The notes under the pieces: model-generated | Database searches by the model: none | Told to the model about the DNA's origin: nothing | The model's input: only the letters and a program-made list of their open reading frames with translations | Translations under genes and position numbers: made by a program | Shown: one piece after another, positions 9,508-58,812 of the stretch | Numbering within the stretch: position 1 is the first letter of the stretch | Layout: the number at the start of each line of letters is the position of its first letter | NCBI GenBank assembly: GCA_041665385.1 | Contig: JBAYIX010000001.1 | Span: forward strand, 47,865 to 111,864 | Direction: 5' to 3' | DNA length: 64,000 nt | Source of the DNA: Minisyncoccota bacterium | GTDB taxonomy: Bacteria > Patescibacteriota > Minisyncoccia > Phycocordibacterales > PALSA-1337

Positions 9508-9514
9508 ATGAGAT

Positions 9515-17136: not shown

Positions 17137-17154
17137 GGAGAGAAATGAAGTGAG

Positions 17155-17255: not shown

Positions 17256-17642
17256 TTGTATGGAGTCTCGTCTATTTCACTGCCCCTCGAATACTCTCAG
17301 AGCTGTATCGAATCCGGCATCTCATTCAGCAGAATGACCTACTGGGTTTATGCCTTAAAACTCCATACCAAGTAGCTTCATTTTTTTGAAGTGTCTGCAT
17401 GCACCACCCTATCCAAAGCCTCATTTAGCAAAATGACCACTGGGTTGACCGTGGATACTCTCGATGCATGGATACTGGTTTCGGTAGCGGGAAGCCGTAA
17501 CCGCCCGCATATTCACCTACTGCCGGAATAAGTATAACTGGTTTTATATAAAAAAATTAGCCCCACATCCAAAATTAATTGAATGCAGGGCTAAGGACCA
17601 AGTTTCTAAGGACCGGAGTCCAAAGCGACTTAGTGTTGAGAA

Positions 17643-32351: not shown

Positions 32352-32425
32352 ACATATATTGTACGATGTTAACATCTATTTCGGTATCTTGCTCATTTTA
32401 GGCATTCATGCTACTATTTCACATC

Positions 32426-40552: not shown

Positions 40553-42526
40553 ATGTCTCTAAATTCCGAACAAGATCGAGCTGTACAAACTACCGATGGG
40601 CCGGTCCTCATCATCGCTGGGGCTGGGGCTGGTAAAACGCGAGTCATCACACATAGAATATTGAATCTGATAAGAAAAGGTGTGACTCCGCACAATATTC
40701 TTGCCATTACTTTTACGAACAAAGCGGCAAAAGAAATGAAAGAACGTGTCGAGTCATTATTGGAAGATGACAAAGATCTGAATCTACCTATTTCTATGCA
40801 AGAAAGACCGTTTGTGAGTACCTTCCATGCACTGGGAGTGCATATACTCCGAGAAAACTCCCGACTTATCGGTCGGACACGACATTTCACGATATATGAC
40901 AGGTCAGATTCCAAACGTGCGGTGAAAGAAGCTATGGAAAGATCATCAGTAGACCCGAAAAAGTTCGACCCAGGATCAATATTAAATAAAATCTCGCTAG
41001 CAAAAGGCGAGGGTATCACAAGATTGGTCTATTTGGACCACACAAAAGATGCTTATGAAGAAATGATAGCCCAGATCTGGGAAAACTATGAAAATATTAT
41101 GGAAAAAGACAAAGCTCTAGACTTCGATGACCTCCTCTTGAAAACTGCATACCTGCTAGAGAACAATGTCGACGTTCGGAGGCATTACAATACTATTTGG
41201 AAATATATTCATATAGATGAATACCAAGACACAAATAGGGTACAGTACAAAATAGCAAAATACCTAACAGGAGAGGAACATCACATATGTGTCGTGGGTG
41301 ATGCCGACCAAAACATCTACAGCTGGAGAGGTGCAACCATAGAAAATATCTTGAACTTTGAAAAAGACTATCCAGAAGCGACCGTGATAGTACTCGAAAA
41401 AAACTATCGATCAACGAAAACCATACTGGATGCGGCAAATATGATCATTGAGAAGAACATTCATCGCAAGAAAAAGAAGCTATATACCGATAGTGGCATG
41501 GGGGAAAAGATATCACTCATAGTTTCATACACAGAAAACGATGAAGCAAGATCTATTGCAGATACGGCTAGAGACCTCATAACAAAAGGCGTAGCGCCGC
41601 GGGACATGGCCGTACTTTACCGGGCAAACTTCCAGTCCCGAGTATTGGAAGAAGCATTCATAAAGAAAAATGTGCCATACCAACTCCTTGGAACTCGCTT
41701 TTTCGAAAGAAAGGAAATAAAAGACGTGCTCTCCTATGTGAGGGCGGCAATGAACCACAAAGAGGGGCAAGAAGGGGATGAAAGTTGGGGTGATATTGCC
41801 AGGATCATAAACGTACCCGCTCGCGGTATAGGTAAAGTCACACTTGCAAAGATATTGTCGGGGAGGTTGGACCTCCTGCCGGACGGAATAAGGGTGAAAA
41901 TCAACAACTTTTTCCATCTACTATCTGATATACGAAAAGAGATCATGGAAAAGAAACCTTCCGAAGCTATACGCTTCATCATCCGAGAGACAGGTATAGA
42001 AAACCAACTCAGGAAAGGGGACAGCGAAGACGAAGAGCGTCTACTCAACATTCAGGAACTTGTTTCTGTGGCCGCACAATATGACACAGAGACAGAAAAA
42101 ACTATCGACTCCGAACAAATTTCCGGCATAGAGAAAATGTTGGAAAATGCCGCCCTAGCGACAGATCAGGATGAACTAGAGAAAAATTCTGATGCAGTGA
42201 AGCTCATGACTGTGCACTCTTCCAAAGGATTGGAATTCGATACTGTATTCATCGCCGGACTGGAACAAGAACTTTTCCCATTTCAGCACATGGACGAAAA
42301 CAACTTGAGCGAAACAGAGAGTGAAGAAGAGCGTAGACTCTTCTATGTCGCCCTCACTAGAGCAAAAAAGAAAGTTTATCTGAGTTATACTATCATCCGT
42401 ACGATATATGGCTCCCAGAAAGTAAACACTCCTTCAGAATTTATTGAGGATATAGCTGCCGAACTCATAGAGTCTGCTGTTCCGGAAAAGCCGAGCGGGG
42501 CAAAAGCATTATTCATAGATTTTTAA
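40553..42526 (+). CDS. pcrA: ATP-dependent DNA helicase PcrA/UvrD family
   Basis: UvrD helicase motifs: Walker A AGAGAGKTRV, motif II DEYQDTN, VGDADQNIYSWRGA, plus C-terminal helicase motifs. 657 aa. Confidence 0.9.
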   Translation: MSLNSEQDRAVQTTDGPVLIIAGAGAGKTRVITHRILNLIRKGVTPHNILAITFTNKAAKEMKERVESLLEDDKDLNLPISMQERPFVSTFHALGVHILRENSRLIGRTRHFTIYDRSDSKRAVKEAMERSSVDPKKFDPGSILNKISLAKGEGITRLVYLDHTKDAYEEMIAQIWENYENIMEKDKALDFDDLLLKTAYLLENNVDVRRHYNTIWKYIHIDEYQDTNRVQYKIAKYLTGEEHHICVVGDADQNIYSWRGATIENILNFEKDYPEATVIVLEKNYRSTKTILDAANMIIEKNIHRKKKKLYTDSGMGEKISLIVSYTENDEARSIADTARDLITKGVAPRDMAVLYRANFQSRVLEEAFIKKNVPYQLLGTRFFERKEIKDVLSYVRAAMNHKEGQEGDESWGDIARIINVPARGIGKVTLAKILSGRLDLLPDGIRVKINNFFHLLSDIRKEIMEKKPSEAIRFIIRETGIENQLRKGDSEDEERLLNIQELVSVAAQYDTETEKTIDSEQISGIEKMLENAALATDQDELEKNSDAVKLMTVHSSKGLEFDTVFIAGLEQELFPFQHMDENNLSETESEEERRLFYVALTRAKKKVYLSYTIIRTIYGSQKVNTPSEFIEDIAAELIESAVPEKPSGAKALFIDF

Positions 42527-42527
42527 C

Positions 42528-43346
42528 ATGTCTTTATTCGCAAAAAAGTCTCTCGGTCAGCATTTTTTGAAGTCCACTCATGTTTTGGAGCAAATCATAC
42601 ATGCATCCGAGATAAAACCCGGTGAAACTATCCTAGAAATCGGTCCGGGTACCGGAGTATTGACCGATGCTTTGCTCAGTGCAGGAGCAAAAGTAGTCGC
42701 AGTTGAAAAGGACCAGAGAGCGCTGGAAGTATTGCATAATAAGAATGCCGAGAATATTTCACTCGGTAAAACCTGTTTTAGACTCATTGATGCTGATATT
42801 TTGGAGGTAAATCCTAATGATCTGGGACTAGAACAGTACAAATACGCCATTGTAGCCAATATCCCTTATTATATTACTGGCGCTATTTTGGAAAAATTCC
42901 TAGAAAATGAACCCCGACCTAGCCGAATGGTCCTTTTGGTACAAAGAGAAGTAGCGGAACGTATATTGGCAAGGCCTGAAAATGGTGAAAAACAAGGCAA
43001 GGAAAGCATACTTTCCATATCCATTAAAGCTTTTGGCGTACCGAAGATAGTTGCGAAGGTACCTCCGGGAGCCTTTGTACCTCCACCTACAGTAGATTCA
43101 GCTATTTTAGCTATTTCTGACATATCTGATAGACGTTTTACAAACAAAAATGTAGATATAAAGCACTTTTTCCGCATCGTACGAGCCGGATTTGCCCATA
43201 AGCGCAAATATTTGGTCAGAAACCTGGAAAGTGTGATAAAATCTGAGGAAATATTGGCTATTTGGAGAAAAAACAGCCTAGACACGAAGGTTAGGGCAGA
43301 GGATCTGCCTCTGGATATGTGGTTTTCTATAGCTTCAGGACAATAA
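42528..43346 (+). CDS. rsmA: 16S rRNA (adenine1518/1519-N6)-dimethyltransferase RsmA/KsgA
   Basis: LGQHFLKS..., SAM-binding EIGPGTGVLT and NIPYYIT motifs. Confidence 0.9.
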   Translation: MSLFAKKSLGQHFLKSTHVLEQIIHASEIKPGETILEIGPGTGVLTDALLSAGAKVVAVEKDQRALEVLHNKNAENISLGKTCFRLIDADILEVNPNDLGLEQYKYAIVANIPYYITGAILEKFLENEPRPSRMVLLVQREVAERILARPENGEKQGKESILSISIKAFGVPKIVAKVPPGAFVPPPTVDSAILAISDISDRRFTNKNVDIKHFFRIVRAGFAHKRKYLVRNLESVIKSEEILAIWRKNSLDTKVRAEDLPLDMWFSIASGQ

Positions 43347-43768: not shown

Positions 43769-44638
43769 ATGGCAAAGAACTACCCGCGTTTACAAACGGT
43801 TATTATTTTCGTAATATGCGCCACTGCTGTCGTGATTTTCGGCATGTATGTCTATGGTAAAAGATCTCAAAATTCAAACCCAAATACCGCACAAATCATA
43901 AAAGTGCAGGGGAACAAGGAAAGTACGTCGGAAAAGATCGCAGACACAAACTGGCAAAAGCAATTCTTCTCCGGAGATGCAAAAGATACGATCAAGCTAA
44001 ACCAGTCTGCGAAAGTTGCCGTAAAAGAAAACAAGCAACCGACTCTTACAGATCAGATCGGACAAGATTTCTTTTCGCAGTTTTGGCAAATACACCAGTC
44101 TGGCTTGGAAGGGGATGAAAAAGTAATGAACAGTTTTTCGGAACGCTTTGCGAGCCAAGTCGCAGCTGCGGCAGTACCGGAACTATATTCAAGTTCAGAC
44201 ATACAGATCTCAAATGAGACGAGTGAAAGTGCGACTGTAACATACGTCAAGAAAATATTGGAAATACTGAAGAAACTCCCTGCATCCGATGCCGCCATCA
44301 TTGCAAACAATGCACTGAAAGAAGGCGGCTCGGCTTCGCTATCACAGATCGACCCTATAATCACCAGTTACAGATCTACCTTGAAAAGTTTAAGAACAAT
44401 ACCTGTGCCTCTGACTTTTTCTTCCCCGCACCTGAACCTAGTAAACGCTGTCAGCGCCATGCTATTCAATGCAGAATCTTTGCGCAAAGTGGACGTCGAC
44501 CCGGTAAAGGGGTTGGCGGCAGTGAGCATATATATCCAAGGGTTACAGTCTCTTTCTGACGCTTTGGGTGATGTTGAAAAAGGATTTGCAGCCGCTGGAA
44601 TAGTATTTACAAATGCAAATCCCGCCGGCCGAAACTAA
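43769..44638 (+). CDS. membrane-anchored protein, first gene of a T4SS-like cluster (hypothetical)
   Basis: N-terminal transmembrane anchor (LQTVIIFVICATAVVIFGMYVYG) and 260-aa extracytoplasmic domain. Co-directional and tightly spaced with downstream genes. Confidence 0.45.
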   Translation: MAKNYPRLQTVIIFVICATAVVIFGMYVYGKRSQNSNPNTAQIIKVQGNKESTSEKIADTNWQKQFFSGDAKDTIKLNQSAKVAVKENKQPTLTDQIGQDFFSQFWQIHQSGLEGDEKVMNSFSERFASQVAAAAVPELYSSSDIQISNETSESATVTYVKKILEILKKLPASDAAIIANNALKEGGSASLSQIDPIITSYRSTLKSLRTIPVPLTFSSPHLNLVNAVSAMLFNAESLRKVDVDPVKGLAAVSIYIQGLQSLSDALGDVEKGFAAAGIVFTNANPAGRN

Positions 44639-44642
44639 ACAT

Positions 44643-46316
44643 ATGTCTTCTTTCTTTAAAAAAATCACAACAGCTACTCTAACAATAATTTTGGTTTTTA
44701 GTATTACCATTACTTCGGTCAACGCCCAAGTCATATATGTTCCTACGAACGATATGGGACCATTTGCTATCAAACGCACTACCGACACGACGATGTTGCA
44801 AGTAAAAAACTACGTATTGGACGGACTAGCTTGGTCTGTGGCAAAGATCATGTTGCAACAAGTCACGGCGAGCGTGGTGAACTGGATCAATAGTGGCTTT
44901 GAAGGAAGCCCTGCGTTCCTCACAAATCCTGGAGCATTCTTCGCAGACACCGCGGACCAGATCACGGGGGCATTCATAGCAAATACTGGCGTGCTTTCCA
45001 GGCTCTGTTCACCCTTCAGCATAGATATCCGTCTCGGCCTAGCACTCTCAGGAGGAGGATCGGACTACAGACGCTATGAATGTACTCTGAGCACAGTTAT
45101 AAACAATGCCAAAAAGTCTACTGTAAATGTAAATGGCAATGTGACAGTAAACGGAAGTTCGGTCATCAATGAAAATGTATCGGCGAGCGGAGACGGGGCA
45201 AGTATAGACGGATTTATGAACGGAGATTTCAACCAAGGCGGCTGGCCGGCATTCATGGCTATGACCACACAGCCACAAAACAATATTTATGGAGCATATC
45301 TCCAGGCCAAGAGTGACCTCGACTACCAGATCGCTACGAAGCAAAACAATATTCGCCTCGACCTCCAAATGGGTAGGGGATTCATGTCATGGCAAAAATG
45401 TACGGACGTGAATATAGACGAGGCGGCAATGTTTTCTAACAATAGCAAAGATGCGGGACTGACCCAAAAAGTAGGCAAGGACGGCAAGGTAAAATATCAG
45501 GATTGTCAGACACAAACACCCGGATCCGTAATAGCAGGCTCCATAGACAAGTCTCTCGGTATTCCTCAGGACACACTCAATATCGCGGGATCTCTGGACC
45601 AAATAGTCGGTGCGCTCTTTTCTCAGCTAGTCTCAAAAGTACTATCTGGTGGCTTGCACGCATCTAGCAACTACAGCTCACAGGGCAGTGCTACCGCAGG
45701 AGTAGCAACACAGCTCCTCCAGCAACAAACAGGCGACCAACTCTCTGATTCCAGAAACAGACTGCAGAGTTCATTGACCTCATACTCTGGTACAGCACTG
45801 CAATACTCCGACCTACGCCAAAAAGCCGTGGACTCACTCAATACGGCAAAGTTGACATACCAAACAGCCATAGCTTGCTTCCAAGGCAAACTGCCTACAG
45901 GATCCATTTCAACCGGTACACAGGATGCCGACTACATGTTCCTGCAAAGTCAGATCTCAAATGCAAATGCGGCAATAGCAAAGGTGGATATAGCCATAGC
46001 ACAATACACTGCAAAAGTTGCTGAAGCGTATTCCAGGACAGAAAGGATCCGCGATCTACAGAAGCAGATAGCAAATGCCATGACAACAGATGAGATCAAC
46101 AAAGCATCCTCAGACTATAACACTGCTATACAGAGTGGTCTCGGTGGAGAGCTTATATCTGAAACAGATATTGCAAATGCGACTACAGATCTGGAGGCGG
46201 CAAAGTCCCAAGCTAGTCTCTTTACCCAAAATGCCATGCAGTTCCAGTCTGCTTGCAACTCATTCCGTCCAGGTACAGCGGGGCAGACGGGGTCAGGATT
46301 CCGTACAGGATTATAA
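44643..46316 (+). CDS. large secreted Ser/Thr/Gln-rich protein of the T4SS-like cluster (hypothetical)
   Basis: Signal peptide/transmembrane MSSFFKKITTATLTIILVFSITITSVNA, 557 aa, low-complexity polar composition with coiled-coil segments. Start at internal Met after the upstream stop. Confidence 0.45.
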   Translation: MSSFFKKITTATLTIILVFSITITSVNAQVIYVPTNDMGPFAIKRTTDTTMLQVKNYVLDGLAWSVAKIMLQQVTASVVNWINSGFEGSPAFLTNPGAFFADTADQITGAFIANTGVLSRLCSPFSIDIRLGLALSGGGSDYRRYECTLSTVINNAKKSTVNVNGNVTVNGSSVINENVSASGDGASIDGFMNGDFNQGGWPAFMAMTTQPQNNIYGAYLQAKSDLDYQIATKQNNIRLDLQMGRGFMSWQKCTDVNIDEAAMFSNNSKDAGLTQKVGKDGKVKYQDCQTQTPGSVIAGSIDKSLGIPQDTLNIAGSLDQIVGALFSQLVSKVLSGGLHASSNYSSQGSATAGVATQLLQQQTGDQLSDSRNRLQSSLTSYSGTALQYSDLRQKAVDSLNTAKLTYQTAIACFQGKLPTGSISTGTQDADYMFLQSQISNANAAIAKVDIAIAQYTAKVAEAYSRTERIRDLQKQIANAMTTDEINKASSDYNTAIQSGLGGELISETDIANATTDLEAAKSQASLFTQNAMQFQSACNSFRPGTAGQTGSGFRTGL

Positions 46317-46321
46317 AAAAC

Positions 46322-48187
46322 ATGATTTCTAGATTTATAAAACAAATACTACCGACGCTCGCTACATCTATATTGATATCGGTTGTTTTCACTCATGTGG
46401 CGAGCGCACAACTCGCCTCAGCAGTAGCGGGAGCAGTCGCGTCGACCGCTTGGGATATGTTCTGGGTTGGAGCATCAAACTTTATGCAAGCCCTCCTCAT
46501 GGTGACAGCATGGCTCGTCGGGCTTACAGGTACACTATTAAACGTAGCGATATTCATAACTACAAATCTTGGTCCATTTATAAAAGATACCCCTGTTATT
46601 TATAATGTCTGGACAATCATACGAGACCTCGCAAGCATGGTGCTCATATTTGTCATTCTTTGGGCGGCCATCCAGATGATACTCAACCTGAAACAACCAA
46701 ACTTTGGTAATCTTCTGAAGAATATAGTCATAATGGGAATCTTGATCAACTTTAGCTTCTTCTTTGCACAAGTGATGATAGACGCGTCGAACATAGTATC
46801 GCTACAATTCTTCAACGCTATCACCCCTGGTAAGGAATACTCGACCGGAAGCAAGCTGGGAGATTGGACCTCGAAAGCTTTCAACGACGGAGGACTATCA
46901 AATGTATTCATGGGCGCTCTCCAAGTAAATGGCTGGTACAAGAACATGGGTGTCGTCGGCGGATCGTCATCTTCGGGAACCACAGACCAGAACGCGGCAC
47001 CTATTCGCATTGTCTTGGTCACATTTGCAGGTATGATCGTGATGATCTTTGCGAGTATGAGTTTCCTCGCGGCTGCGGCCGTATGTCTCTTGCGTACAGC
47101 GATGCTAATATTCCTGCTTGCATTTTCTCCTATATGGATAGCGGCATTCGCATTTCCAGAACTCAAGGAAGTAGCAAATCCCTGGTGGAAACAATTCAAA
47201 GTCCAGCTATTGTTCTTGCCGACATATTTGATACTCATGTATGTGGCGATACGTGTATTAAACGAAAGTGGCTTGAACAAACTCACAGGATCTACAGAAT
47301 CCGCTTTGACTATCGCCTCGCAAGCCAATCTTTCTGCATACACTTCGCTCTTTGTAGGTTTTACTATTGTTCTGATCATGATCAACCTACCTCTCATCGG
47401 AGCACTCAGTATCGCCGGTGCGGCAGGGACAGCGACAGAGAAATGGTTCAAGGGCACACAATCTTGGCTCGGTAGAAATACTATGGGTAGATTTGCCTCC
47501 AGAGTGAATGAGAGCGATGTCGCGCGTAACTGGTATGCAAAAAACCCTCGTGCTGGCATGGTTTTGCAAAAGCAACTTTCCAAAGTCAGCTCGGCGAGCT
47601 TTGCATCTGACAAGAACAGCATACTTGGAATGAAAGACACGAAGACTGGATTTGATAAGGTAAGAAAGGATAAAGTCTCAGCTATCGATAAGTACGCAAA
47701 AGGGCTAGGCTTCGATGATGAAAGGGTAAAAACGAAGATTGCGGATGAACTTAAGACAACCGACTCTATCATTGCGACAGATAAAAAAATCCTGAGCGAT
47801 AATCGAAATAAACTAAGTACAACTACCGATCCAGATGAGAGAAGAAGGATTGAAGCAACAATTACTGAATCGGAGAAGGAATTGGAGAAGCGAGTCAACG
47901 AACGAGACACTAAGGCCAAGGAACTCAAAAAGAGTTACGAATCTGAAAGGAAAGGTGAGGTTGTAAAATTCTATCAGGACCGCAGATCAACTGCAGGAAA
48001 ATTTGCGAGACTGGTCACAGGCAACAAGAGATTTAAGGGTCCAAACAAATGGAATGCAAGTGTATTTGGTGCTCTAAAGAAAGACAAAGATACCGCAGCA
48101 AAACTGATCGACGCCCTAAAAGATGAAGTAAAACCAAAAGACGAAGACAAGCCGCCAAAGAAAGAGGAAAGCGCTCATGCAGAATAA
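46322..48187 (+). CDS. TrbL/VirB6-like polytopic membrane protein with charged C-terminal tail
   Basis: Signal-like N-terminus, then at least six transmembrane helices with a large loop (VirB6/TrbL topology). C-terminal 150 aa are Lys/Glu/Asp-rich coiled coil. Located upstream of PrgI-like and VirB4-like genes. Confidence 0.5.
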   Translation: MISRFIKQILPTLATSILISVVFTHVASAQLASAVAGAVASTAWDMFWVGASNFMQALLMVTAWLVGLTGTLLNVAIFITTNLGPFIKDTPVIYNVWTIIRDLASMVLIFVILWAAIQMILNLKQPNFGNLLKNIVIMGILINFSFFFAQVMIDASNIVSLQFFNAITPGKEYSTGSKLGDWTSKAFNDGGLSNVFMGALQVNGWYKNMGVVGGSSSSGTTDQNAAPIRIVLVTFAGMIVMIFASMSFLAAAAVCLLRTAMLIFLLAFSPIWIAAFAFPELKEVANPWWKQFKVQLLFLPTYLILMYVAIRVLNESGLNKLTGSTESALTIASQANLSAYTSLFVGFTIVLIMINLPLIGALSIAGAAGTATEKWFKGTQSWLGRNTMGRFASRVNESDVARNWYAKNPRAGMVLQKQLSKVSSASFASDKNSILGMKDTKTGFDKVRKDKVSAIDKYAKGLGFDDERVKTKIADELKTTDSIIATDKKILSDNRNKLSTTTDPDERRRIEATITESEKELEKRVNERDTKAKELKKSYESERKGEVVKFYQDRRSTAGKFARLVTGNKRFKGPNKWNASVFGALKKDKDTAAKLIDALKDEVKPKDEDKPPKKEESAHAE

Positions 48188-48953
48188 AAATATGAATCAA
48201 GAAGACATACAACAACAAATAAAAGAACAGTTCCGCAGTCTGCCACCGTTACTGCAGGAAGCTATCACTGCTACAGACCTACCGATAAAGATGAAGGACC
48301 TTGCGAACAAGCACAACCTCCTATTAGACGAGGCGGGCATACTAGAAATGGAAATACTATTTGTATTGCTAGGAATGAAAAAATCTTCGGATTTTGTCAG
48401 TACACTTGCCTCAGAACTAAAACTCGACAAACATGAGGTAACAAGCATCGCACAGGATGTGAACACATTCATATTTGATGAAGTGAGAACTCACCTGAGA
48501 GAGATCGAACAAGAAACCGAGGACGAAGGTGATAAAGGCACCGCTCCGTCGTCATCTGCAACCTCAGTGAACTTCGACACACTAAAGAGAGACATGGAAG
48601 CGGTAGGGGGCATAGCTATTCATAATGAAAGCTCAGAACCAGAGGAATACACATATAATAGTATGGGCAAACCTGCCTCTACTCACGAACCCCACATAGA
48701 GCCACCGACAAATTTGCCCGGGAAAACAGAGATAGTAGGCATGACAGATGCTCATACCGAGGCTCTGCCAGATCACCTATTGGGAAAACCTGCAGTTACG
48801 CCTATTGCACACAAACCAATTATAAACCAGACTTTTCCTACATCTTCAACTCAACCTTCAGTTTCAGTACGTCCTACTCAGCCGGTGCAACCCATCCCAC
48901 CTATGCCGCGAGAAGGAGGAAGCATCGGTGATCACTATCGCGAACCAGTGTAA
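48177..48953 (+). CDS. acidic hypothetical protein in the T4SS-like cluster
   Basis: 258 aa, no transmembrane helix, acidic, C-terminal Pro/Thr/Ser-rich tail. Overlaps the upstream gene stop. Confidence 0.4.
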   Translation: MQNKNMNQEDIQQQIKEQFRSLPPLLQEAITATDLPIKMKDLANKHNLLLDEAGILEMEILFVLLGMKKSSDFVSTLASELKLDKHEVTSIAQDVNTFIFDEVRTHLREIEQETEDEGDKGTAPSSSATSVNFDTLKRDMEAVGGIAIHNESSEPEEYTYNSMGKPASTHEPHIEPPTNLPGKTEIVGMTDAHTEALPDHLLGKPAVTPIAHKPIINQTFPTSSTQPSVSVRPTQPVQPIPPMPREGGSIGDHYREPV

Positions 48954-48983
48954 CTCCGAACATTATAAGTTATAATATGTGAG

Positions 48984-49421
48984 ATGCGTTACCAAGTTCC
49001 TCAATTCATAGAGGTGGAAGACAAAATTTTCGGACCACTCACGCTGAAACAGTTCATTTACATTGTCGGCGGAGCCGGACTGTCATTCATCATATATGTC
49101 CTTATCGGCAATCTCCTATTGTCATTCATCCCCATGGCCATAGTCATGGGAATATCTCTCGCTTTGGCATTCTTCAAGGTATACAACCATTTCCCACTCA
49201 TAACCATAGCAGAACATGCCTTCAAATATTGGTTTGGTAGCAAGCTATATATATGGAAAAAAGAAGAGAAACCCCGGGCGAAAGACGCACAGTCAGCTAT
49301 CCGAGACGCAAAGAGCTACGCAGGCATAACTGTACCAAAGATTTCCGATAGCAAACTCAAGGAGCTCACTTGGAGTCTGGATATCAAAGAGAGCATGTAC
49401 TCCAACCGCAACCAAAAATAA
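48984..49421 (+). CDS. PrgI-family (VirB3-like) small membrane protein of Gram-positive/CPR-type T4SS
   Basis: N-terminus MRYQVPQFIEVEDKIFGPLTLKQFIYIVGGAG followed by two transmembrane helices. The QFI(D/E)VEDKI(F)GPLTL(K/R)QF motif is characteristic of PrgI-family proteins encoded upstream of VirB4. Confidence 0.65.
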   Translation: MRYQVPQFIEVEDKIFGPLTLKQFIYIVGGAGLSFIIYVLIGNLLLSFIPMAIVMGISLALAFFKVYNHFPLITIAEHAFKYWFGSKLYIWKKEEKPRAKDAQSAIRDAKSYAGITVPKISDSKLKELTWSLDIKESMYSNRNQK

Positions 49422-49422
49422 A

Positions 49423-50064
49423 ATGGCAAACACACCCCCAAAAGCTACGCAGGATTTTGTACCTATTTCGGAAATACGTGACGGTGTAATCATCCTGAAA
49501 AACGGGGGAATGAGGTCTGTGATACTGGCATCTTCGTTGAACTTCGCGCTCAAATCTGCAGACGAGCAAAACTCCATATTGTTTCAGTTCCAAAACTTCC
49601 TAAATTCTCTCGATTTCTCCGTACAGATAGTCATACAATCAAAAAAACTCGACATAAGGCCGTACCTCGCCCTTTTGGAGTCCCGATACAAAGACCAAGC
49701 TACCGAGCTCATGAAGATTCAAGTCAGAGAATATATAGAATTTATAAAGACTTTCGTTGAAAATACCAATATCATGTCGAAGAGTTTCTTTGTCGTCATA
49801 CCTTATGATCCGGCACTCCTAAACTCATCTAATAACCCCATGAGCAAGTATCTTCCCGGGAAAAATAAAGGTTCGGAAAGGCTGAGTGCCGACCAGCAAT
49901 TCCAAGAATACCGATCTCAGCTCGAACAGAGAGTAGCAGTAGTAGAGCAGGGCCTGGTTCGTTGTGGCATACGCGCGGCAGAACTAGGTACAGAAGAAGT
50001 GGTAGAATTGTTTTATAAACTCTTCAATCCCGGAGAGACGGAAAAGCCTATCCAAATAACCTAA
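49423..50064 (+). CDS. VirB4-like N-terminal segment (possible split or frameshifted 5' part of the VirB4 ATPase gene)
   Basis: 213 aa. VPISEIRDGVIILKNGGMRSVILASSLNFALKSADEQNSILFQFQNFLNSLDFSVQIVIQS resembles the extreme N-terminus of Gram-positive VirB4/Orf16/TcpF proteins. Stop TAA at 50062-64 is followed 1 nt later by the ATG of the next ORF. Confidence 0.5.
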   Translation: MANTPPKATQDFVPISEIRDGVIILKNGGMRSVILASSLNFALKSADEQNSILFQFQNFLNSLDFSVQIVIQSKKLDIRPYLALLESRYKDQATELMKIQVREYIEFIKTFVENTNIMSKSFFVVIPYDPALLNSSNNPMSKYLPGKNKGSERLSADQQFQEYRSQLEQRVAVVEQGLVRCGIRAAELGTEEVVELFYKLFNPGETEKPIQIT

Positions 50065-50065
50065 T

Positions 50066-51877
50066 ATGTCTTTTATCTCAAAAATATTCAGTAAAAAAGA
50101 AGTTTCTCCCATAGTTTCTATCATGCCGGAAGAAATATACCAGGCTGGCGTTCTCGAACTCAAAGATGTCATCGCACCCTCTGCTCTCAAGGTCAGCCCA
50201 AAGGATATAAATCTGGGAGAGAAAGTAGGCAGAACACTCTTTGTCATATCATATCCGAGATTCCTCCAAGAGAGCTGGTTTGCCCCCATCATAAACCTGG
50301 ACAAAGTTTTTAATGTTTCCATCTTCATCCACCCCGTAGACACAGCAAAGATCCTCCGTCATTTTCAAAAGAAAGTTGCGGAAGTCCAGAGCCAGATCTC
50401 GAGGAGGGAAGATAAGGGACTGGTGCGTGACCCTGCTCTCGATACCGCATACCAAGACCTAGAAGCTCTCCGCGACCAACTGATGCAGGCACAAGAGCAC
50501 CTTTTCGACGTGGGAGTTTACATCACACTCTTTGCCGACAATGAAAGCGAACTAGACAAACTCGAATCCGAAGTGAAATCCATACTGGAATCCAAGCTTG
50601 TCTATGTAAAACCAGCTCTTTTCCAACAGGAAAATGGCTTCAAAAGTGTGCTTCCACTAGCAGACGACCAACTCGCAGTACATTCCAAGCTCAATTCTTC
50701 ACCTCTTTCCAGTCTATTTCCATTCGTCTCTTTTGACCTTACCTCGGACAAAGGTATCCTTTATGGCATAAACAGACACAATTCCTCGCTGGTACTTTTC
50801 GACCGATTCCTACTAGAAAACTACAACTCTGTCACTTTTGCAGTAGCCGGAGCCGGAAAATCCTACTGTACAAAGCTCGAAATACTCCGAACTCTCATGT
50901 TCGACACCGATGTCATAGTCATCGACCCAGAAAAGGAATACGAATACATGGCCGAAGCCACAGGAGGAAAATACTTCAACATTTCCTTGAATTCCGAGCA
51001 CCATATCAACCCCTTTGACCTACCTATCCCCAGAGAAGATGAGTCGGCATCAGATGTTTTGCGATCCAATATCATAAACCTTGTCGGTTTATTCCGTATC
51101 ATGCTCGGGGGACTCACTCAGGAGGAAGACGCGATCATAGACAGGGCGATCACCGAGACCTACGCTCTCAAAGACATCACTGCAGAGTCCAACTTTCAGA
51201 GTGTAGAGCCACCACTTTTGTCTGATTTTGAAATGGTACTTGCAGGAATGGAGGGGGCGAATTCTCTGGTAGAAAGACTTTCCAAATATACCAAGGGCAC
51301 GTGGTCCAGTTTTATCAACAGACCATCGAATGTAGATATAAACAAAAAGTTTGTGGTATTTTCCCTGCGGGATATGGAAGACGAGCTCAAACCTGTGGCT
51401 ATGTATATAGTCACGCACTATATATGGAATTCCATACGAAAAGTTCTGAAAAAGCGCCTACTAGTGATCGACGAGGCCTGGTGGATGATGAAATCCGAAG
51501 ACACCGCCTCATTCTTGTTCGGCCTAGCAAAGAGAGGTCGCAAATACTTCCTGGGCCTTGCTACCATCACTCAGGATGTCGACGACTTCCTAAAGTCTCC
51601 TTACGGCCTACCTATCGTGAGCAACTCATCTATGCAAATACTGCTAAAGCAGTCACCGGCTGTCATAGATACTGTTCAGAGAACATTTAACCTTACCGAT
51701 GAAGAAAAGTATTTGCTCCTAGAGTCCGACGTGGGAGAGGGTATATTCTTCGTAGGATTGAAACATGTGGCGCTCAAGATCGTGGCTTCATATACTGAAG
51801 ACCAGATTATCACCACAAATCCTCAGCAAGTGATGGCTATAAGAGAGGCAAAGAAACAATTGGAAAGTGCGGGGTAG
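50066..51877 (+). CDS. virB4: VirB4/TrbE/CagE-family type IV secretion ATPase
   Basis: Walker A AVAGAGKSYCT, Walker B LLVIDEAWWMM, VirB4-type N-terminal domain (GEKVGRTLFVISYPRF) and C-terminal ATPase motifs (GLATITQDVDDF). 603 aa. Confidence 0.8.
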   Translation: MSFISKIFSKKEVSPIVSIMPEEIYQAGVLELKDVIAPSALKVSPKDINLGEKVGRTLFVISYPRFLQESWFAPIINLDKVFNVSIFIHPVDTAKILRHFQKKVAEVQSQISRREDKGLVRDPALDTAYQDLEALRDQLMQAQEHLFDVGVYITLFADNESELDKLESEVKSILESKLVYVKPALFQQENGFKSVLPLADDQLAVHSKLNSSPLSSLFPFVSFDLTSDKGILYGINRHNSSLVLFDRFLLENYNSVTFAVAGAGKSYCTKLEILRTLMFDTDVIVIDPEKEYEYMAEATGGKYFNISLNSEHHINPFDLPIPREDESASDVLRSNIINLVGLFRIMLGGLTQEEDAIIDRAITETYALKDITAESNFQSVEPPLLSDFEMVLAGMEGANSLVERLSKYTKGTWSSFINRPSNVDINKKFVVFSLRDMEDELKPVAMYIVTHYIWNSIRKVLKKRLLVIDEAWWMMKSEDTASFLFGLAKRGRKYFLGLATITQDVDDFLKSPYGLPIVSNSSMQILLKQSPAVIDTVQRTFNLTDEEKYLLLESDVGEGIFFVGLKHVALKIVASYTEDQIITTNPQQVMAIREAKKQLESAG

Positions 51878-51931
51878 GATCCCTGAACACCATGCGGTGA
51901 AGGGACACGCTATTACTGTTATAATAGACTC

Positions 51932-52324
51932 GTGAAACCCGAACACCGCATAACAACAGGCGCATTTGCAATATGGCTCATCGTTGGTGGACTTTTCGAT
52001 CTTCTCGGTCTTATACCATTCGTCGAGAATGTAATAGGAATAATTTTCGCTCTACTATTTGGAACATACCTATGGATAAAAGGCATGGGTGTATTTAAGG
52101 GCAAAGTTTTTATTACCGAATGTATCAGTTTAGTCGGATCTTTTATCCCTATGATACAGAGCCTTCCTCAACTGACAGCAGGCGTAGTAGCAATATTCAT
52201 AATAAGTAGACTAGAAGAAAAGGTCGGTATATCAGCGACATCACTCACGAGTGGCAAGGGTATTCGAACCCCCGTAGGCAGGAATCCGCTAAACCAGGGA
52301 GGTATACGCGCACCACGTGTATAA
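51932..52324 (+). CDS. small polytopic membrane protein (hypothetical; possibly pilin/VirB2-like)
   Basis: 130 aa with three hydrophobic segments, directly downstream of VirB4. Assignment to VirB2 is speculative. Confidence 0.35.
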   Translation: MKPEHRITTGAFAIWLIVGGLFDLLGLIPFVENVIGIIFALLFGTYLWIKGMGVFKGKVFITECISLVGSFIPMIQSLPQLTAGVVAIFIISRLEEKVGISATSLTSGKGIRTPVGRNPLNQGGIRAPRV

Positions 52325-52357
52325 CCAAACATGCAGCTTTGTCATATTCTTGGTAAA

Positions 52358-53413
52358 ATGAAATCAATGAAATCTAAAGTATTCTTAACTTCCACTTTTT
52401 TGCTTTTTATATTTGCTTTCACACAAGCTCAAGGAATATCTACGAATATCCAAGGCATAGATCTGACAGTCTCGAACAATAGCCCAGCCCCAGGACAGAC
52501 TGTGACCATAAAAGCCGAGAGTTATGTTTCTGACCTCAATTCTTCGAATATTACCTGGAAGCTGAACAACGTGGAATATAAAAAGGGTATAGGTGTAACT
52601 TCCGTCGACATACAGGCACCGGCTCTAGGAAAAAAACTAACAGTGAGTATAGTTGCAGTCACTCCGGAAGGGAGGACGATGACAACCAGCGTGAGCCTAA
52701 GTTCCGGAAATGTTGATCTTATATTGGAATCAGACGGCTACGTGCCTCCATTTTTCCAAGGCAAGATGCCCCTCGTCTACCAGAATAACTACCGCGTGAT
52801 AGCCATGCCGCACCTAGCGGATACATCGGGCAAGGAATACGATCCAGCGACACTCATATATCAATGGAGTAAGGATTCCCGTCTGGTCCAGGACCAGAGT
52901 GGTTATGGTAAACAAGTATTTTTGTGGAAAGATGAGATGGTCCCGAGACAGAGACTGATATCCGTAAAAGTATTGACCCGAGACGGCAGTGTCCAAGCAG
53001 AAAAGGTGATACCCATAGAAGCAGGGAGCCCACTCATAGTCTTTTACAAGGATGATCCATTGTACGGCACACTCTTCAATAATGCCCTGGAAAATAGCGT
53101 CAGCCTGGGAAAGAGCGGAGAAATATCGGTTCTTGCTGTTCCTTTTGGTTTCAATAAACCAGCAAATACCATGGGAGATCTCAATTTTTCCTGGCTCATA
53201 AACTCCATCAAACATGATTCTCTTTCGGCGAGTCAGTCCATAACCCTCCGAGCACCGACAGATAGTAGTGGATCTTCGAATATACAGCTCACTGTATATA
53301 ACAACGAAGACATATTAGAAAAAGCAGAAAATAGAATAACTGCAACCTATGCAATACCAAATAGTAATACTTCCATTAATAGTGCAAATACCCTGAACAA
53401 CAATGGCCTATAA
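52358..53413 (+). CDS. secreted beta-rich protein of the T4SS-like cluster (hypothetical)
   Basis: Signal peptide MKSMKSKVFLTSTFLLFIFAFTQAQG. Ser/Thr/Asn-rich, no known domain. Confidence 0.45.
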   Translation: MKSMKSKVFLTSTFLLFIFAFTQAQGISTNIQGIDLTVSNNSPAPGQTVTIKAESYVSDLNSSNITWKLNNVEYKKGIGVTSVDIQAPALGKKLTVSIVAVTPEGRTMTTSVSLSSGNVDLILESDGYVPPFFQGKMPLVYQNNYRVIAMPHLADTSGKEYDPATLIYQWSKDSRLVQDQSGYGKQVFLWKDEMVPRQRLISVKVLTRDGSVQAEKVIPIEAGSPLIVFYKDDPLYGTLFNNALENSVSLGKSGEISVLAVPFGFNKPANTMGDLNFSWLINSIKHDSLSASQSITLRAPTDSSGSSNIQLTVYNNEDILEKAENRITATYAIPNSNTSINSANTLNNNGL

Positions 53414-54599
53414 TACTCTCAAGAAAATAAAGTTTGTGATTTTTGTAGTGATTTTGATGACTTCTTTCTCGGTCATTGCCACACAACAACCTGCATACGC
53501 ACAAGAGTACAAGAAATACGAACTCTTGGAGCCCTTGCCATGCATACCAGATGAAGTATTAGACTGCAACGACTCTACTACCGGAAAAAACTCCACACTA
53601 ACGAGTGTGAACATGGCACAATTTTTCCAGTATGGGTTCAATCTTTTCATAGCAATTGCGGGCGTAGCCGCCGTATTCATGATGGTTTGGGGAGGATTCC
53701 TGTATATCACATCAGATTCCTGGTTCAAGAAAGACCAAGGTAAGACTTATTTCCAAAACGCGATATACGGCCTCCTCATGATTCTATGCTCATATCTGAT
53801 ATTACGAACTGTAAATCCAAAATTGGTTTCATTCCCGAGGACTATACCTGTAATAACCAGTACCGCAGCAACCGAAAACCCCGTCAGTCTTTTTGAACAA
53901 TTAAACAAAGCTGCTACGAACTATAACGTAGAAGCTCGAAAATTTGTCGATGAAGCAAGAGAAGCTGATACAGCTCTGACCGCACTAAAAAAAGAAAAAG
54001 GGGATGTAGAAAAGCAAATATTCAATGCTGAACTGAGTAATGCTGGACTCGATTCACAGACTACATTGATATCAGAACTCAAAGTAAAACTAGCAAAGAT
54101 CGATGACCAAATAAAAGAAAATGAAGCGAAGATAGTTGCTGGTGCAGCAAAAGCGACGATCACCAACGCTGGATTATCTATGACAACCAGCGGGGTCAGT
54201 AACAGTGCAACAGATGTCTATGCGACGGCACTGGAGGTATCCAGCGGTCTCAATCTAGTAGAACAGCAGAGACTTGACGCCGTTAAAAGATTAAATCAAA
54301 TGCAAGCTCCGCAAGAGATAACAGCTGTCAACGAACAAGCAGTTTATGCAAAAGCGATGATAAACTTGACTGACGCACAGGCTTCAGTAAACCGATTCAC
54401 TATAACCAAACCAGATAACTATGGGACTCCTTACACCACCACTGCAGATATAAAGCAATTTAAGGCAGATGTAGCATCTCGCATTACAAAAATTGAAGCT
54501 GAAGCAGCAACGATCAACAATGCCGAACTAAAACAAAAAATGTTAGCTGAAGCAAAAAAAGCAAAGGACGCATTAGAAAAGAAATTGAAAGGATATTAA
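53403..54599 (+). CDS. membrane protein with signal peptide, two-helix hairpin and long C-terminal coiled coil (hypothetical)
   Basis: Signal peptide, then helix pair FNLFIAIAGVAAVFMMVWGGFLYI / IYGLLMILCSYLILRTV reminiscent of conjugative pilin hairpins, then about 250 aa of coiled coil. Confidence 0.4.
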   Translation: MAYNTLKKIKFVIFVVILMTSFSVIATQQPAYAQEYKKYELLEPLPCIPDEVLDCNDSTTGKNSTLTSVNMAQFFQYGFNLFIAIAGVAAVFMMVWGGFLYITSDSWFKKDQGKTYFQNAIYGLLMILCSYLILRTVNPKLVSFPRTIPVITSTAATENPVSLFEQLNKAATNYNVEARKFVDEAREADTALTALKKEKGDVEKQIFNAELSNAGLDSQTTLISELKVKLAKIDDQIKENEAKIVAGAAKATITNAGLSMTTSGVSNSATDVYATALEVSSGLNLVEQQRLDAVKRLNQMQAPQEITAVNEQAVYAKAMINLTDAQASVNRFTITKPDNYGTPYTTTADIKQFKADVASRITKIEAEAATINNAELKQKMLAEAKKAKDALEKKLKGY

Positions 54600-55943
54600 A
54601 TGAAAAAAACAACAACCATAATAACAGTTCTGATCCTCATCCTCGCTCTGGTCGGCGCGGCGTATTGGTATTTCATTTTTGGCTTTGGTTCTGCACCAGT
54701 GACAGCCCTACCGGGGAATCAGACGACTCCGGGAGGATTTGAGCCTATAGACCGTCCTCTACCAACCGAATCCACATTACCAGGCGATATGACGAACAGT
54801 TCTTCTACAACAACGACTACAAATGAGCCTTCACCTCTCGCAACTCTCCGCCATTTGAGCAGTGTGCCAGTGGGAGGCTTTGGTGTATTTACCAGCGCTT
54901 CGCTCCGCTCCGGTCAGGCAGGATCTACGACTATCCGCTGGGTGGATAGAGGAAGAGGAAACACATACGAGGCGTACAGCCACAAACCAGACATAAACAT
55001 TCTTTCCAACACCTTGGTTCCTCGCATATACCAGAGCTGGTGGAATAACAGTCTAAACTCCTTTTTTGCGCAATATTCCAGTGCCACCAACGATACTGTC
55101 ACCACTGTTGTTGCAAATATTCAGAAAACTGTCGCAAACACACCCAGGCCTCAAAATGCGTCTTCTACCAACATCTCAAATAGCTCAACCGAAACAATTA
55201 CCGAAACGCCATATCAGCTCAAAGGAACGCTAGTTTCTGGAAACATTATAGACATTGCAGTATCACCAGCCAAAGATAGGGCAGTAGTAGTTACAAAAGA
55301 GAACAATCGAGCAATAGGATACCTATCCAAGTTCGATGGCACGGGACAAACCCAACTATTCAGCCTACCTCTCACAGCTATCACGGTAGACTGGCCGGAG
55401 ACCAATACTATTTCGGTCGTTACAAAAGGAAGTGCCTCATATGCCGGATACTTGTACTTCATAAATACAAAAACTGGCGTTATGAAGCAAATCTTGGGCG
55501 GTATAGCAGGCCTCAGTGCGAAAGTTAGCAAAGATGCGACACGAGTATTGTATTCGAGCACCGGCAGGGGAGAGTCTGCCATAGAAACGAACATGTTGGA
55601 TGTAAAAACAAGTACTGTCACAGATGTAATATTCAAAACATTAGCTGACAAGTGTACATGGTCTCCCAAAACCCTTGAACAGGTGTATTGCGCAGTACCT
55701 TCAACATTACCAAATGGTCTATATCCCGATGATTGGTACCTCGGTTTTGCCGCCTTTCGTGATAATATTTGGCTTTTAGACACAAAAACTGGCAACGGGA
55801 AACAAATAGCAAACCTACTCACTCTAGGAAATAGCCTTATAGATGCTATAAACCTGGAAATAGACAACTCTGACAACTATCTAGTATTCATGAATAAGAT
55901 CGATCTCAGTTTGTGGTCACTAGATCTAGCTGCTACAAACTAG
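54600..55943 (+). CDS. membrane-anchored secreted protein, Ser/Thr-rich with beta-propeller-like C-terminus (hypothetical)
   Basis: N-terminal transmembrane anchor MKKTTTIITVLILILALVGAAYWY, 447 aa. Last gene of the co-directional cluster. Confidence 0.4.
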   Translation: MKKTTTIITVLILILALVGAAYWYFIFGFGSAPVTALPGNQTTPGGFEPIDRPLPTESTLPGDMTNSSSTTTTTNEPSPLATLRHLSSVPVGGFGVFTSASLRSGQAGSTTIRWVDRGRGNTYEAYSHKPDINILSNTLVPRIYQSWWNNSLNSFFAQYSSATNDTVTTVVANIQKTVANTPRPQNASSTNISNSSTETITETPYQLKGTLVSGNIIDIAVSPAKDRAVVVTKENNRAIGYLSKFDGTGQTQLFSLPLTAITVDWPETNTISVVTKGSASYAGYLYFINTKTGVMKQILGGIAGLSAKVSKDATRVLYSSTGRGESAIETNMLDVKTSTVTDVIFKTLADKCTWSPKTLEQVYCAVPSTLPNGLYPDDWYLGFAAFRDNIWLLDTKTGNGKQIANLLTLGNSLIDAINLEIDNSDNYLVFMNKIDLSLWSLDLAATN

Positions 55944-57365: not shown

Positions 57366-57465
57366 CCAACTCACAACACAAAAAATGTTCTCCACAGCTT
57401 ATCAACATATTTACAGCTCATCCACAAGTTCCCATATTTATAAACAGGTATATACTGTAAAAACG

Positions 57466-58812
57466 ATGAATGATTTTTCTCAAATCTGGCAGACAGCTCT
57501 GATAGAGATGCAATCTATAGTTTCTCCTGCAAATTATTCCACCTGGGTAAAGTCTACTAGGATCATCCGTGAAGAAGAGGGTGTCATATATCTCGGCGTA
57601 CCCAACGAATTTACCCGCGAATGGCTATTCAAGAAGTGTCACAACTCCATTTTGCGCATATTGAGACAACTCAATGAACATGTCCGGGCTTTGGAGTACA
57701 TAGTTCTAAAGGAGGAGGAAGAAAAACAAGACCAGCTCAGGAAAAAGGCATTTATGGCCCCTACTATCTCCATGCCTTTGCAAGATTTCTACATAAACAA
57801 AGAAGATAATCTCAATCCCCGCTACACCTTCGACAACTTTATCATCGGACCCTTCAACGACTTGGCTCACGCAGCCTCTTCTATGGTGGTAAAGAGTCCT
57901 GGTCATGTCTATAACCCACTATTCATATACGGTGGAACTGGCCGTGGCAAAACACACCTCATACAGGCAGTAGGGAACAAGATCAAAAGCCTTTTTCCAA
58001 ATAAAAAAGTCTTTTATTTGACTGCGGAGCGTTTCGGCTCTGAGTTTTTCGAATCCTTACAAAACAGCACGGCTCAACAATTCAAGGAAAGGTATCGCAA
58101 ATACGATGTCCTCATAATGGACGATGTCCAATTCTTCTCTAGCAAAGAAAAGTTCCAAGAAGAACTGTTCCACCTATTCAATACATTCCACGATACGGCC
58201 CGCCAGTTGGTATTTTCTTCCGACAAGCACCCGAATGTCATCCCAAACCTCGAGGATCGTATACGTGGCCGCTTTGCCGCAGGGATGATCGTAGATATAG
58301 CTGAACTCGACAAGGAATCCCGCATGGCAATAGTCAAAACCAAATGTAAACCTCACAATATCACTCTTACAGAAGAAATCGTCGATTATCTGGCGACAGA
58401 AATCGAAGATAATATCCGGGAGATAGAAGGGATAGTGAATATTATTGCTCACCAAACAATGCACAAGTCGCGCGAACTCAATATAAACGAAATAAAAAAC
58501 ATCCTGAAAAACAACGCAAAACCAAAAAAGATGCTGTCTGTAAAGGATGTAGTAAAAACGGTTTGTGACTTTTACAATATAGAAGAGGAGAGTATATACA
58601 ACAAAACCCGCAGAAAAGAAGTAGTGAAACCCCGACAAGTCGTCATGTATATACTCCGAGAAGATTTCAACATCTCTTTTCCTTCCATTGGAGACAAACT
58701 CGGGGGGAGGGATCATACTACCGTTATTCATTCCTATGAAAAAGTAAAGGAAGATATAAAAACAAACTCTGTTTTGTCGCAGGAGATACTTCAGCTCCGG
58801 ACTATGTTATAA
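57466..58812 (+). CDS. dnaA: chromosomal replication initiator protein DnaA (start at internal Met; ORF track from 57385)
   Basis: N-terminal domain I, AAA+ Walker A GGTGRGKTHL, Walker B VLIMDDVQF, sensor motifs and C-terminal DNA-binding domain (REDFNISFPSIGDKLGGRDHTTVIHSYEKV). Confidence 0.92.
   Translation: MNDFSQIWQTALIEMQSIVSPANYSTWVKSTRIIREEEGVIYLGVPNEFTREWLFKKCHNSILRILRQLNEHVRALEYIVLKEEEEKQDQLRKKAFMAPTISMPLQDFYINKEDNLNPRYTFDNFIIGPFNDLAHAASSMVVKSPGHVYNPLFIYGGTGRGKTHLIQAVGNKIKSLFPNKKVFYLTAERFGSEFFESLQNSTAQQFKERYRKYDVLIMDDVQFFSSKEKFQEELFHLFNTFHDTARQLVFSSDKHPNVIPNLEDRIRGRFAAGMIVDIAELDKESRMAIVKTKCKPHNITLTEEIVDYLATEIEDNIREIEGIVNIIAHQTMHKSRELNINEIKNILKNNAKPKKMLSVKDVVKTVCDFYNIEEESIYNKTRRKEVVKPRQVVMYILREDFNISFPSIGDKLGGRDHTTVIHSYEKVKEDIKTNSVLSQEILQLRTML

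Follow-up and report, generated by a model that had tools for sequence, protein, structure and literature searches.

A probable Paceibacteria-type version of the Patescibacteria type IV secretion system beside the presumed replication origin of a Minisyncoccota bacterium

The stretch of DNA analysed here, hereafter the window, comprises 64,000 nucleotides (nt) from a Minisyncoccota bacterium (GenBank assembly GCA_041665385.1, contig JBAYIX010000001.1, positions 47,865 to 111,864) and harbours at positions 43769-55943 a cluster of 11 tightly packed open reading frames (ORFs), g1 to g11, whose gene content points to a type IV secretion system (T4SS) of the kind described for Patescibacteria, i.e., the candidate phyla radiation (CPR). 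All 11 ORFs are located on the plus strand and the gaps between them range from -11 to +54 nt. A preliminary description of the same DNA had reported twelve co-directional genes, whereby the common orientation was confirmed but the number had to be corrected. Upstream, the cluster is preceded by pcrA/uvrD (40553-42526) and rsmA/ksgA (42528-43346), and downstream it is followed by the minus-strand genes yidC and rnpA and subsequently by dnaA (57385-58812), dnaN and a gene for a class A penicillin-binding protein. The cluster directly adjoins the presumed replication origin (oriC) and has housekeeping surroundings. Its GC content (0.42-0.47) is no different from that of the rest of the window and the flanks. 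A scan of the cluster for promoters and terminators gave results at or below chance and was uninformative on the operon structure.

Pfam and NCBIfam scans were carried out with all sizeable ORFs of the window, and precomputed Pfam assignments were used for the 10 kb past each of its ends. A comparative scan used one genome per species, and the 80 best g7 matches were fetched as loci (L001-L080), to which the locus counts given below refer. Within the cluster, g5, g6 and g7 were identified as VirB3/VirB4 core. The small membrane protein encoded by g5 (48984-49421) is the VirB3/PrgI homolog near virB4; it matches PF12666 (PrgI) with E=1e-10 and 42.4 bits as compared to a Pfam gathering cut-off of 27, contains the motif QFIEVEDKIFGPLTLKQF and shares 42-79% identity with its counterparts across 79 loci. 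The VirB4 ATPase is encoded by g7 (50066-51877) and is of the TrsE/CD1110 (MPF_FATA) type, as its product matches NF045971 (the monoderm CD1110-family VirB4, its best curated model) at model positions 177-732 (E=4.8e-111, 372 bits vs. a cut-off of 325) and, in the Pfam scan, also PF19044 and AAA_10. BLASTP with pSK41 TrsE yielded a nearly full-length alignment (E=2e-36), and the closest solved structure was found to be the VirB4 C-terminal domain (PDB 4AG5, E=1.5e-37). Both catalytic motifs of this ATPase are intact in g7 and in 79/79 orthologs, Walker A reading AVAGAGKS and Walker B reading LLVIDEAW in g7.

Directly upstream of g7, a TrsD-like protein is encoded by g6 (49423-50064), which corresponds to a detached VirB4 N-terminal domain. 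The NCBIfam matches of g6 include VirB4_plasma at positions 99-233 (E=1.2e-12), TrsD (NF041427, E=1e-5), CD1110 VirB4 at positions 2-116 and TIGR00929 at positions 7-172, whereby g6 aligns with N-terminal stretches (100-230 positions) of four full-length models of VirB4 in addition to the TrsD family model. Comparison of the g6 profile with TrsD alone by hhalign was marginal (E=0.02), and the curated TrsD and VirB4 models, not this comparison, were taken as decisive. A stray terminase match (PHROGs) was disregarded as P-loop/N-domain-like similarity. As g6 matches VirB4 N-termini and TrsD, and g7 positions 177-732 of the CD1110 model, both genes were concluded to tile one VirB4, and the TrsD-like gene adjoins virB4 in 79/79 loci. 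In all of these loci, g6 is a separate ORF which stops at the same position, with the relative frames of g6 and g7 varying and their spacing ranging from a 4-nt overlap to ~485 nt. As the two ORFs are separate throughout, the split was reasoned to be old and maintained and not the outcome of a frameshift; an equivalent arrangement is found for TrsD and TrsE of pSK41. Apart from this, in four loci (L035, L037, L060, L079) a small four-helix-bundle gene (23S-IVS/bAvd-like) was observed to reside between the g6 and g7 homologs, where the gap amounts to ~450-490 nt.

Upstream of this core, g3 (46325-48187) encodes a polytopic membrane protein which was accepted, mainly by its modelled fold, as an 'extended' VirB6, placing a VirB6-like gene near virB4. 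The protein possesses a signal peptide, ~6 transmembrane (TM) helices and a K/E-rich hydrophilic C-terminal region of ~260 residues. No Pfam match was obtained for the window protein, and TrbL-type domains were detected in 3/37 g3 orthologs and 5/120 database homologs. The AlphaFold model of the g3 membrane part (mean confidence, pLDDT, 75.7; predicted template modelling score, pTM, 0.70) was compared by Foldseek with 350,542 PDB chains, whereby TrwI/VirB6 of R388 was identified as top match and also gave the best superposition.

The putative VirB2-like pilin near virB4 is encoded by g10 (53403-54599), for which a PF18895 (T4SS_pilin) domain was identified with E=1.4e-6 and 28.7 bits, just above the cut-off of 26.6. 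It had not been recognised as a pilin in the preliminary description. The g10 protein consists of a signal peptide and two hydrophobic helices (residues ~30-145), followed by a coiled-coil-like tail of ~250 residues. Among its orthologs, 34/35 match PF18895 and one matches TrbC/VirB2. The g10 pilin domain gave no significant match with pSK41 TrsB (CagC-like). When the window was scanned with a pilin-domain hidden Markov model (HMM), g10 was the only matching ORF, which speaks against g8 or other ORFs of the window as additional pilins. The tail of g10 varies among the orthologs of the fetched loci; it is mostly coiled-coil-like, and single orthologs carry a CHAP or a Peptidase_M15_4 domain instead. 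Based on these domains, the 'pilin' protein of some species may supply the missing VirB1-like activity.

The remaining six genes are lineage-specific and encode four envelope proteins (g1, g2, g9 and g11), the small membrane protein g8 and the acidic cytoplasmic protein g4. The first of these, g1 (43769-44638), encodes a bitopic protein of 289 residues with an N-terminal TM anchor (residues 10-28) and an extracytoplasmic domain that is probably helical. Its counterpart was found in the same position in 39 loci (21-48% identity), and searches of Pfam, NCBIfam and PDB profiles gave no match, nor were relatives detected outside the lineage. The idea of g1 being VirB8-like was not supported by the PDB profile search. 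The Sec-exported protein g2 (44643-46316; 557 residues) carries a signal peptide, has an S/T/Q/N content of 34% and belongs to a family of ~1,000 unannotated proteins (976 homologs), with no Pfam domain in the 120 listed. Its cysteine-containing N-terminal domain is conserved, the invariant residues including W81, G85, G88, P90, C122 and C147. In the AF2 model of g2, residues 350-540 form a long helical bundle (pLDDT >90), whereas the N-terminal domain is without a confident model, and Foldseek returned generic helical bundles only. A VirB5-like stalk encoded just upstream of VirB6 was considered for g2 and found to be unsupported, as no VirB5 was among the Foldseek matches and only the C-terminal bundle was modelled confidently.

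Between g3 and g5, g4 (48177-48953) encodes an acidic cytoplasmic protein of 258 residues (40 D+E vs. 22 K+R), which comprises a helical N-terminal domain followed by a P/T/S-rich linker. Overall, g4 is poorly conserved (20-50% identity), and neither a family (Pfam, NCBIfam) nor a PDB match was obtained. At its extreme C-terminus a D-x-Y-R-E-P motif is present in 24 aligned orthologs, with D, Y and E being invariant and R being conserved to >=90%, a pattern suggestive of a peptide for docking or recognition. Sequence-profile searches of the PDB with g1, g3, g4 and g6 returned nothing usable. Downstream of virB4, g8 (51932-52324) encodes a membrane protein of 130 residues with ~3 TM segments and the conserved motifs D-L-L-x-L-I-P-F-V-G and E-D-K-T-G; it was found by tblastn in just 15 loci and has no Pfam or NCBIfam family match. 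The Sec-exported protein g9 (52358-53413) possesses a signal peptide and Ig-like beta-sandwich domains, for which matches of its orthologs to BiPBP_C (10/35), Ig_3 (8/35) and PKD_3 (4/35) were found together with a weak match (E=0.005) between the g9 profile and a PDB entry, the Ig protein Hoc, rendering g9 a candidate surface or adhesion module. Finally, g11 (54600-55943; 447 residues) is composed of an N-terminal TM anchor (residues 7-25), an S/T-rich linker and a domain which, on weak support, is a probable TolB-type beta-propeller: several chains of TolB were matched by the g11 profile with E=0.004-0.1, and 5/37 orthologs match DPPIV_N, PD40 or DUF5050.

Taken gene by gene, most of the order proposed in the preliminary description was recovered, namely a membrane anchor protein (g1), a large secreted S/T/Q-rich protein (g2), a VirB6/TrbL-like polytopic protein (g3, mainly by fold), an acidic protein (g4), a PrgI/VirB3-like protein with the quoted motif (g5), a VirB4 in two ORFs (g6 and g7), which represents an ancient conserved arrangement and not damage, and a small protein with three TM segments (g8). 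The last three proteins had been assigned coiled coils, which holds for the long tail of g10, but not for the Ig-like g9 and the propeller-like g11. The HMM searches also answered the question whether VirB4 might be the sole T4SS component of the cluster, as PrgI, TrsD/VirB4-N and the PF18895 pilin were matched as well.

Close relatives of g7 were found in at least 587 species. Identity with g7 amounts to 76-94% for the 80 best of them, and their labels denote Patescibacteria lineages or unclassified bacteria and metagenome-assembled genomes (MAGs), the lineage labels including Paceibacterota, Parcubacteria, Taylor-, Zambryski- and Campbellbacteria as well as MAGs labelled Saccharibacteria. 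The latter, titled 'uncultured Candidatus Saccharibacteria' and stemming from binchicken co-assemblies (L001, L002, L007, L009 and others), share 88-94% identity in VirB4 with Paceibacterota/Parcubacteria MAGs and are fully syntenic with them, hence these labels look unreliable. Wherever the contig reaches, the order pcrA-rsmA-[g1..g11]-yidC-rnpA-dnaA-dnaN recurs in the 80 loci. As the same gene order is found in 80 fetched genomes, the cluster is far beyond chance. Since this synteny is kept in the 80 top-ranking of at least 587 species, the cluster was interpreted as a core locus next to oriC that is passed on vertically, and not as an integrative and conjugative element (ICE). The individual genes differ in their rate of change: median identity to the window protein is 80% for g7, 65% for g6 and 54% for g5, and 28-37% for g1-g4 and g8-g11, as compared to 57%, 55% and 50% for the housekeeping comparators DnaA, PcrA and DnaN, respectively. 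In 48/48 loci that hold both, g7 is more conserved than DnaA, a striking result for a secretion ATPase. The combination of a highly constrained motor in the cytoplasm with rapidly changing parts at the surface, as read from these identities, fits a machine that would face another organism.

The question whether the cluster belongs to a mobile element was addressed within ~84 kb of the 166-kb contig, i.e., the 64-kb window and two 10-kb extensions. No relaxase, no VirD4-type coupling protein and no VirB11 was found in the window or in the 10 kb past either end. The extension on one side encodes RuvC/YebC/RuvB, a PilB-like ATPase, TsaE and PolA, that on the other side RNase H, ComEC, SOD, S12/S7 and EF-G. 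The extensions hence consist of housekeeping genes and, together with the conserved synteny, rule out that an ICE or a conjugative module directly adjoins the window, for which an inspection of the flanks had been recommended. The earlier statement that VirD4, relaxase, VirB11 and integrase are absent from the window holds for the first three but not for the last, since a XerC/XerD-type tyrosine recombinase, the only one found, is encoded at 31422-32375, 11 kb away amid housekeeping genes. The hallmarks of a mobile element are missing, as no integrase borders the cluster, its context is that of the core genome in 80 species and its GC content resembles that of the flanks. Judged by gene content in the region inspected, the cluster thus appears as a chromosomal locus near dnaA, dnaN, rnpA and ksgA without relaxase and coupling protein, and the absence of both renders conjugation very unlikely. 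Sequence searches with g1-g11 gave no match to a cell-wall hydrolase or to a VirB8-like/NTF2-like protein; a VirB8 fold is conceivable for g1, g8, g9 or g11. A LysM-LysM-M23 peptidase gene is located at 39272-40360 on the opposite (minus) strand, 3.4 kb upstream of the cluster; LysM/M23-type proteins near virB4 in Paceibacteria were previously counted as possible VirB1 substitutes (PMC12102498).

Further features of the window include the type IV pilus genes mentioned in the preliminary description, which are indeed present at 7370-14306 on the minus strand and encode PilB with an MshEN domain, PilC, two N-methyl pseudopilins, one of them with CarboxypepD_reg domains, and a PilX/GspK-like protein. 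The ComEC gene lies just past the left window end, and a second PilB-like ATPase is encoded past the right end (L083 13926-15305). In addition, a diversity-generating retroelement was observed at 15709-18275, consisting of a reverse transcriptase gene (15709-16719, minus strand), a template repeat (~17155-17255) and a variable repeat (~17647-17759), the latter located at the 3' end of a minus-strand ORF of 210 residues (17643-18275). Mismatches between template and variable repeat fall on minus-strand template adenines. A bAvd-like four-helix-bundle match lies at ~16822-17136 on the opposite (plus) strand, which is an unusual orientation.

Over recent years (2023-2025), the system to which the cluster most likely belongs has entered the literature, and the copy in the window is considered real but ordinary, not representing a new kind of system. 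Quinonero-Coronel et al. (2025) reported that the VirB4 proteins of Patescibacteria form a monophyletic clade within MPF_FATA, with TrsD being the commonest associated component and PrgI/VirB3, VirB6 and PF18895 pilins being encoded near virB4; almost no relaxases were found and homologs of the type IV coupling protein (T4CP) are mostly encoded elsewhere, while the Paceibacteria locus adjoins dnaA, dnaN, rnpA, ksgA and rpmH (PMC12102498). By transposon sequencing (Tn-seq), Wang et al. (2023) identified the homologous locus of Southlakia epibionticum, which is without coupling and relaxase proteins, as essential for epibiotic growth (PMC10633639). The idea of a conduit or uptake function was raised for the system (PMC12857230), and a 2026 preprint described tubular structures at the Minisyncoccota symbiont-host interface together with host-RNA feeding. 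Taken together, the cluster very probably is a Patescibacteria T4SS, and it was assigned with a probability of roughly 85% as the Paceibacteria-type version of this system, with a single-operon-like layout and derived from monoderm conjugation machinery of the MPF_FATA (pGO1/pSK41-like) type from which the DNA-processing parts were lost. The preliminary proposal of a T4SS-like system of episymbionts is thereby supported, the system being already characterised bioinformatically (PMC12102498) and, in Saccharibacteria, genetically (PMC10633639).

Several points weigh against this assignment or against parts of it. Six of the 11 cluster proteins are without an assigned role, and neither a VirB8-like nor a VirB1-like protein was identified among them. 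The VirB6 assignment has weak sequence support, given the missing Pfam match of g3 itself and a Foldseek E-value of 0.04, and the 250-residue tail of g10 departs from canonical VirB2 and may be incompatible with a packed pilus. Beyond the ~84 of 166 kb inspected, the genome could still encode a coupling protein. The conservation of g7 is somewhat inflated by the fact that the 80 loci were picked by g7 similarity; the gap to the other genes is nonetheless large. Finally, everything beyond gene content is inference.

As to its function, a pilus- or conduit-building role was assumed by analogy, which appears reasonably probable. Within the proposed mechanism, g5, g6 and g7 would form an energy centre at the cytoplasmic membrane, seated on a platform made of g3. 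In other T4SSs, VirB4 suffices for pilin extraction, whereby ATP hydrolysis pulls the pilin from the membrane. By analogy, ATP hydrolysis by the split VirB4 would extract the g10 pilin, yielding an extracellular tube or stalk. The fast-evolving proteins g1, g2, g9 and g11 together with the g10 tail are suggested to cross the cell wall and to contact the host cell, and the resulting structure may serve host-dependent growth by uptake of host-derived molecules or by protein delivery, rather than conjugation. With respect to the cargo, a slightly higher rating was given to uptake or a general conduit role than to effector export, and a lower one to ComB-like DNA uptake, because a type IV pilus/ComEC route exists on the same contig and comEC is dispensable in Southlakia. 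A more specific version of this idea, which must be regarded as tentative and rather doubtful, assumes a 'reverse' T4SS, in which the highly conserved core of split VirB4, VirB3 and VirB6 and the pilin conduit would import host RNA, DNA or other building blocks. Host specificity would then be determined by the fast-evolving surface module, composed of g1, g2, g9, g11 and the tail of g10, while g4 with its conserved C-terminal motif would act as a cytoplasmic adaptor replacing the coupling protein.

Other explanations for the cluster were considered, two of which concern its nature. The two VirB4 ORFs lie 1 nt apart in different frames, relaxase and T4CP are missing and the machinery descends from MPF_FATA conjugation systems, all of which could be expected from a decayed or domesticated ICE remnant with VirB4 as frameshifted pseudogene. 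This explanation is highly implausible when confronted with a split that is kept in 79/79 loci irrespective of a spacing from a 4-nt overlap to ~485 nt and sometimes even of a whole inserted gene, with the same TrsD/TrsE arrangement in the functional plasmid pSK41, with g6 and g7 being more conserved than DnaA, with intact catalytic motifs and with core-gene synteny across 80 species. Likewise, it was considered that just g5-g7 represent a T4SS-derived module, and that g1-g4 and g8-g11 are unrelated envelope proteins which share an operon near oriC. Such a composition would account for the missing T4SS family matches of g1, g2, g4, g8, g9 and g11 and for their evolving much faster than g5-g7, but it is quite improbable given that the VirB6-like g3 and the pilin g10 are interspersed among the flanking genes, that 80 species have retained both the gene order and its tight spacing and that surface parts are the least conserved ones in known T4SSs too.

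The other two explanations accept a T4SS and differ in the direction and nature of transport. Export of effectors or toxins into a host bacterium, with substrates that bypass a coupling protein as for the Ptl system of Bordetella or the VirB system of Brucella, is a possibility to be taken seriously, albeit not the expected one. Wang et al. favoured protein export or an alternative role (PMC10633639), T4CP-less effector systems exist (PMC12102498), and the acidic cytoplasmic g4 with its conserved D-x-Y-R-E-P could act as recognition signal or adaptor; this role of g4 is, however, pure speculation, and genes for effectors, toxins or immunity-like proteins were recognised neither within the cluster nor next to it. 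A competence-type T4SS similar to ComB or Ced, which would import host or environmental DNA for nucleotides or recombination, is clearly unlikely, although Patescibacteria lack nucleotide synthesis (PMC10633639) and the region inspected holds no relaxase, T4CP or VirB11, as is the case for ComB. The weak match of g7 to the DNA-import ATPase CedB (E=1.9e-7) amounts to just 30 bits as compared to a cut-off of 700 and hence does not indicate specific homology, none of the cluster genes was recognised as encoding a DNA-binding component, and competence is already provided for on the same contig by type IV pilus genes and ComEC. Moreover, in Southlakia deletion of comEC ends competence but not viability, whereas the T4SS is essential (PMC12857230).

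The Patescibacteria T4SS, as which the cluster is best interpreted, is among the few machines which plausibly explain the host-dependent life of a huge and mostly uncultured radiation, and it is the first T4SS reported to be essential for its own carrier bacterium. To the knowledge of this system the present analysis makes modest additions, which are pointers for the choice of structural or genetic targets and not a discovery: fold-level support for VirB6, the finding that the TrsD/VirB4 split is universal in the lineage (79/79 loci) and common to pSK41, first rough assignments of 'grey' accessory genes (Ig-like, probable beta-propeller, coiled-coil-tailed pilin), and the observation of a VirB4 that evolves more slowly than DnaA next to fast-evolving surface parts.

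The cluster was further compared with known systems. With R388 Trw and Agrobacterium VirB (MPF_T) it shares equivalents of VirB2, VirB3, VirB4 and VirB6, with g7 matching TrwK/VirB4, but the outer-membrane core VirB7/9/10 as well as VirB5, VirB8, VirB11 and VirD4 are lacking, the envelope here being of the monoderm type. Helicobacter ComB and archaeal Ced resemble it in being T4SS-derived and, as far as gene content in the region inspected is concerned, in having neither relaxase nor coupling protein; a specific sequence relationship is not seen (CedB, see above), and a separate type IV pilus/ComEC route is encoded on the same contig. The trs region of pSK41/pGO1 shows the same order of VirB3-like protein (TrsC), TrsD and VirB4 (TrsE), and also encodes a TrbL/VirB6-type protein (TrsL in pSK41), while RefSeq annotates a CagC/VirB2-like TrsB for pSK41. 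Relaxase, the VirD4-like TrsK, the CHAP hydrolase TrsG, the topoisomerase TrsI and SSB are specific to pSK41 and absent from this cluster, and pSK41 is a mobile plasmid, whereas the locus described here is fixed in the chromosome. From the Southlakia locus (SEML1_0006-0019) the cluster differs in having one long-tailed pilin-domain gene instead of an array of six short pilins, and from Southlakia and the published loci in that no peptidase or lysozyme gene follows virB4, with g1, g2, g9 and g11 being unnamed in the papers. It agrees with the Patescibacteria-clade T4SS and with Southlakia, namely in a VirB4 with a TrsD-like gene just upstream, in PrgI/VirB3, VirB6 and a PF18895 pilin, in the absence of a relaxase, in the chromosomal position near dnaA, dnaN, rnpA and ksgA, and in the closest relatives found, which are labelled as Patescibacteria lineages or as unclassified bacteria/MAGs.

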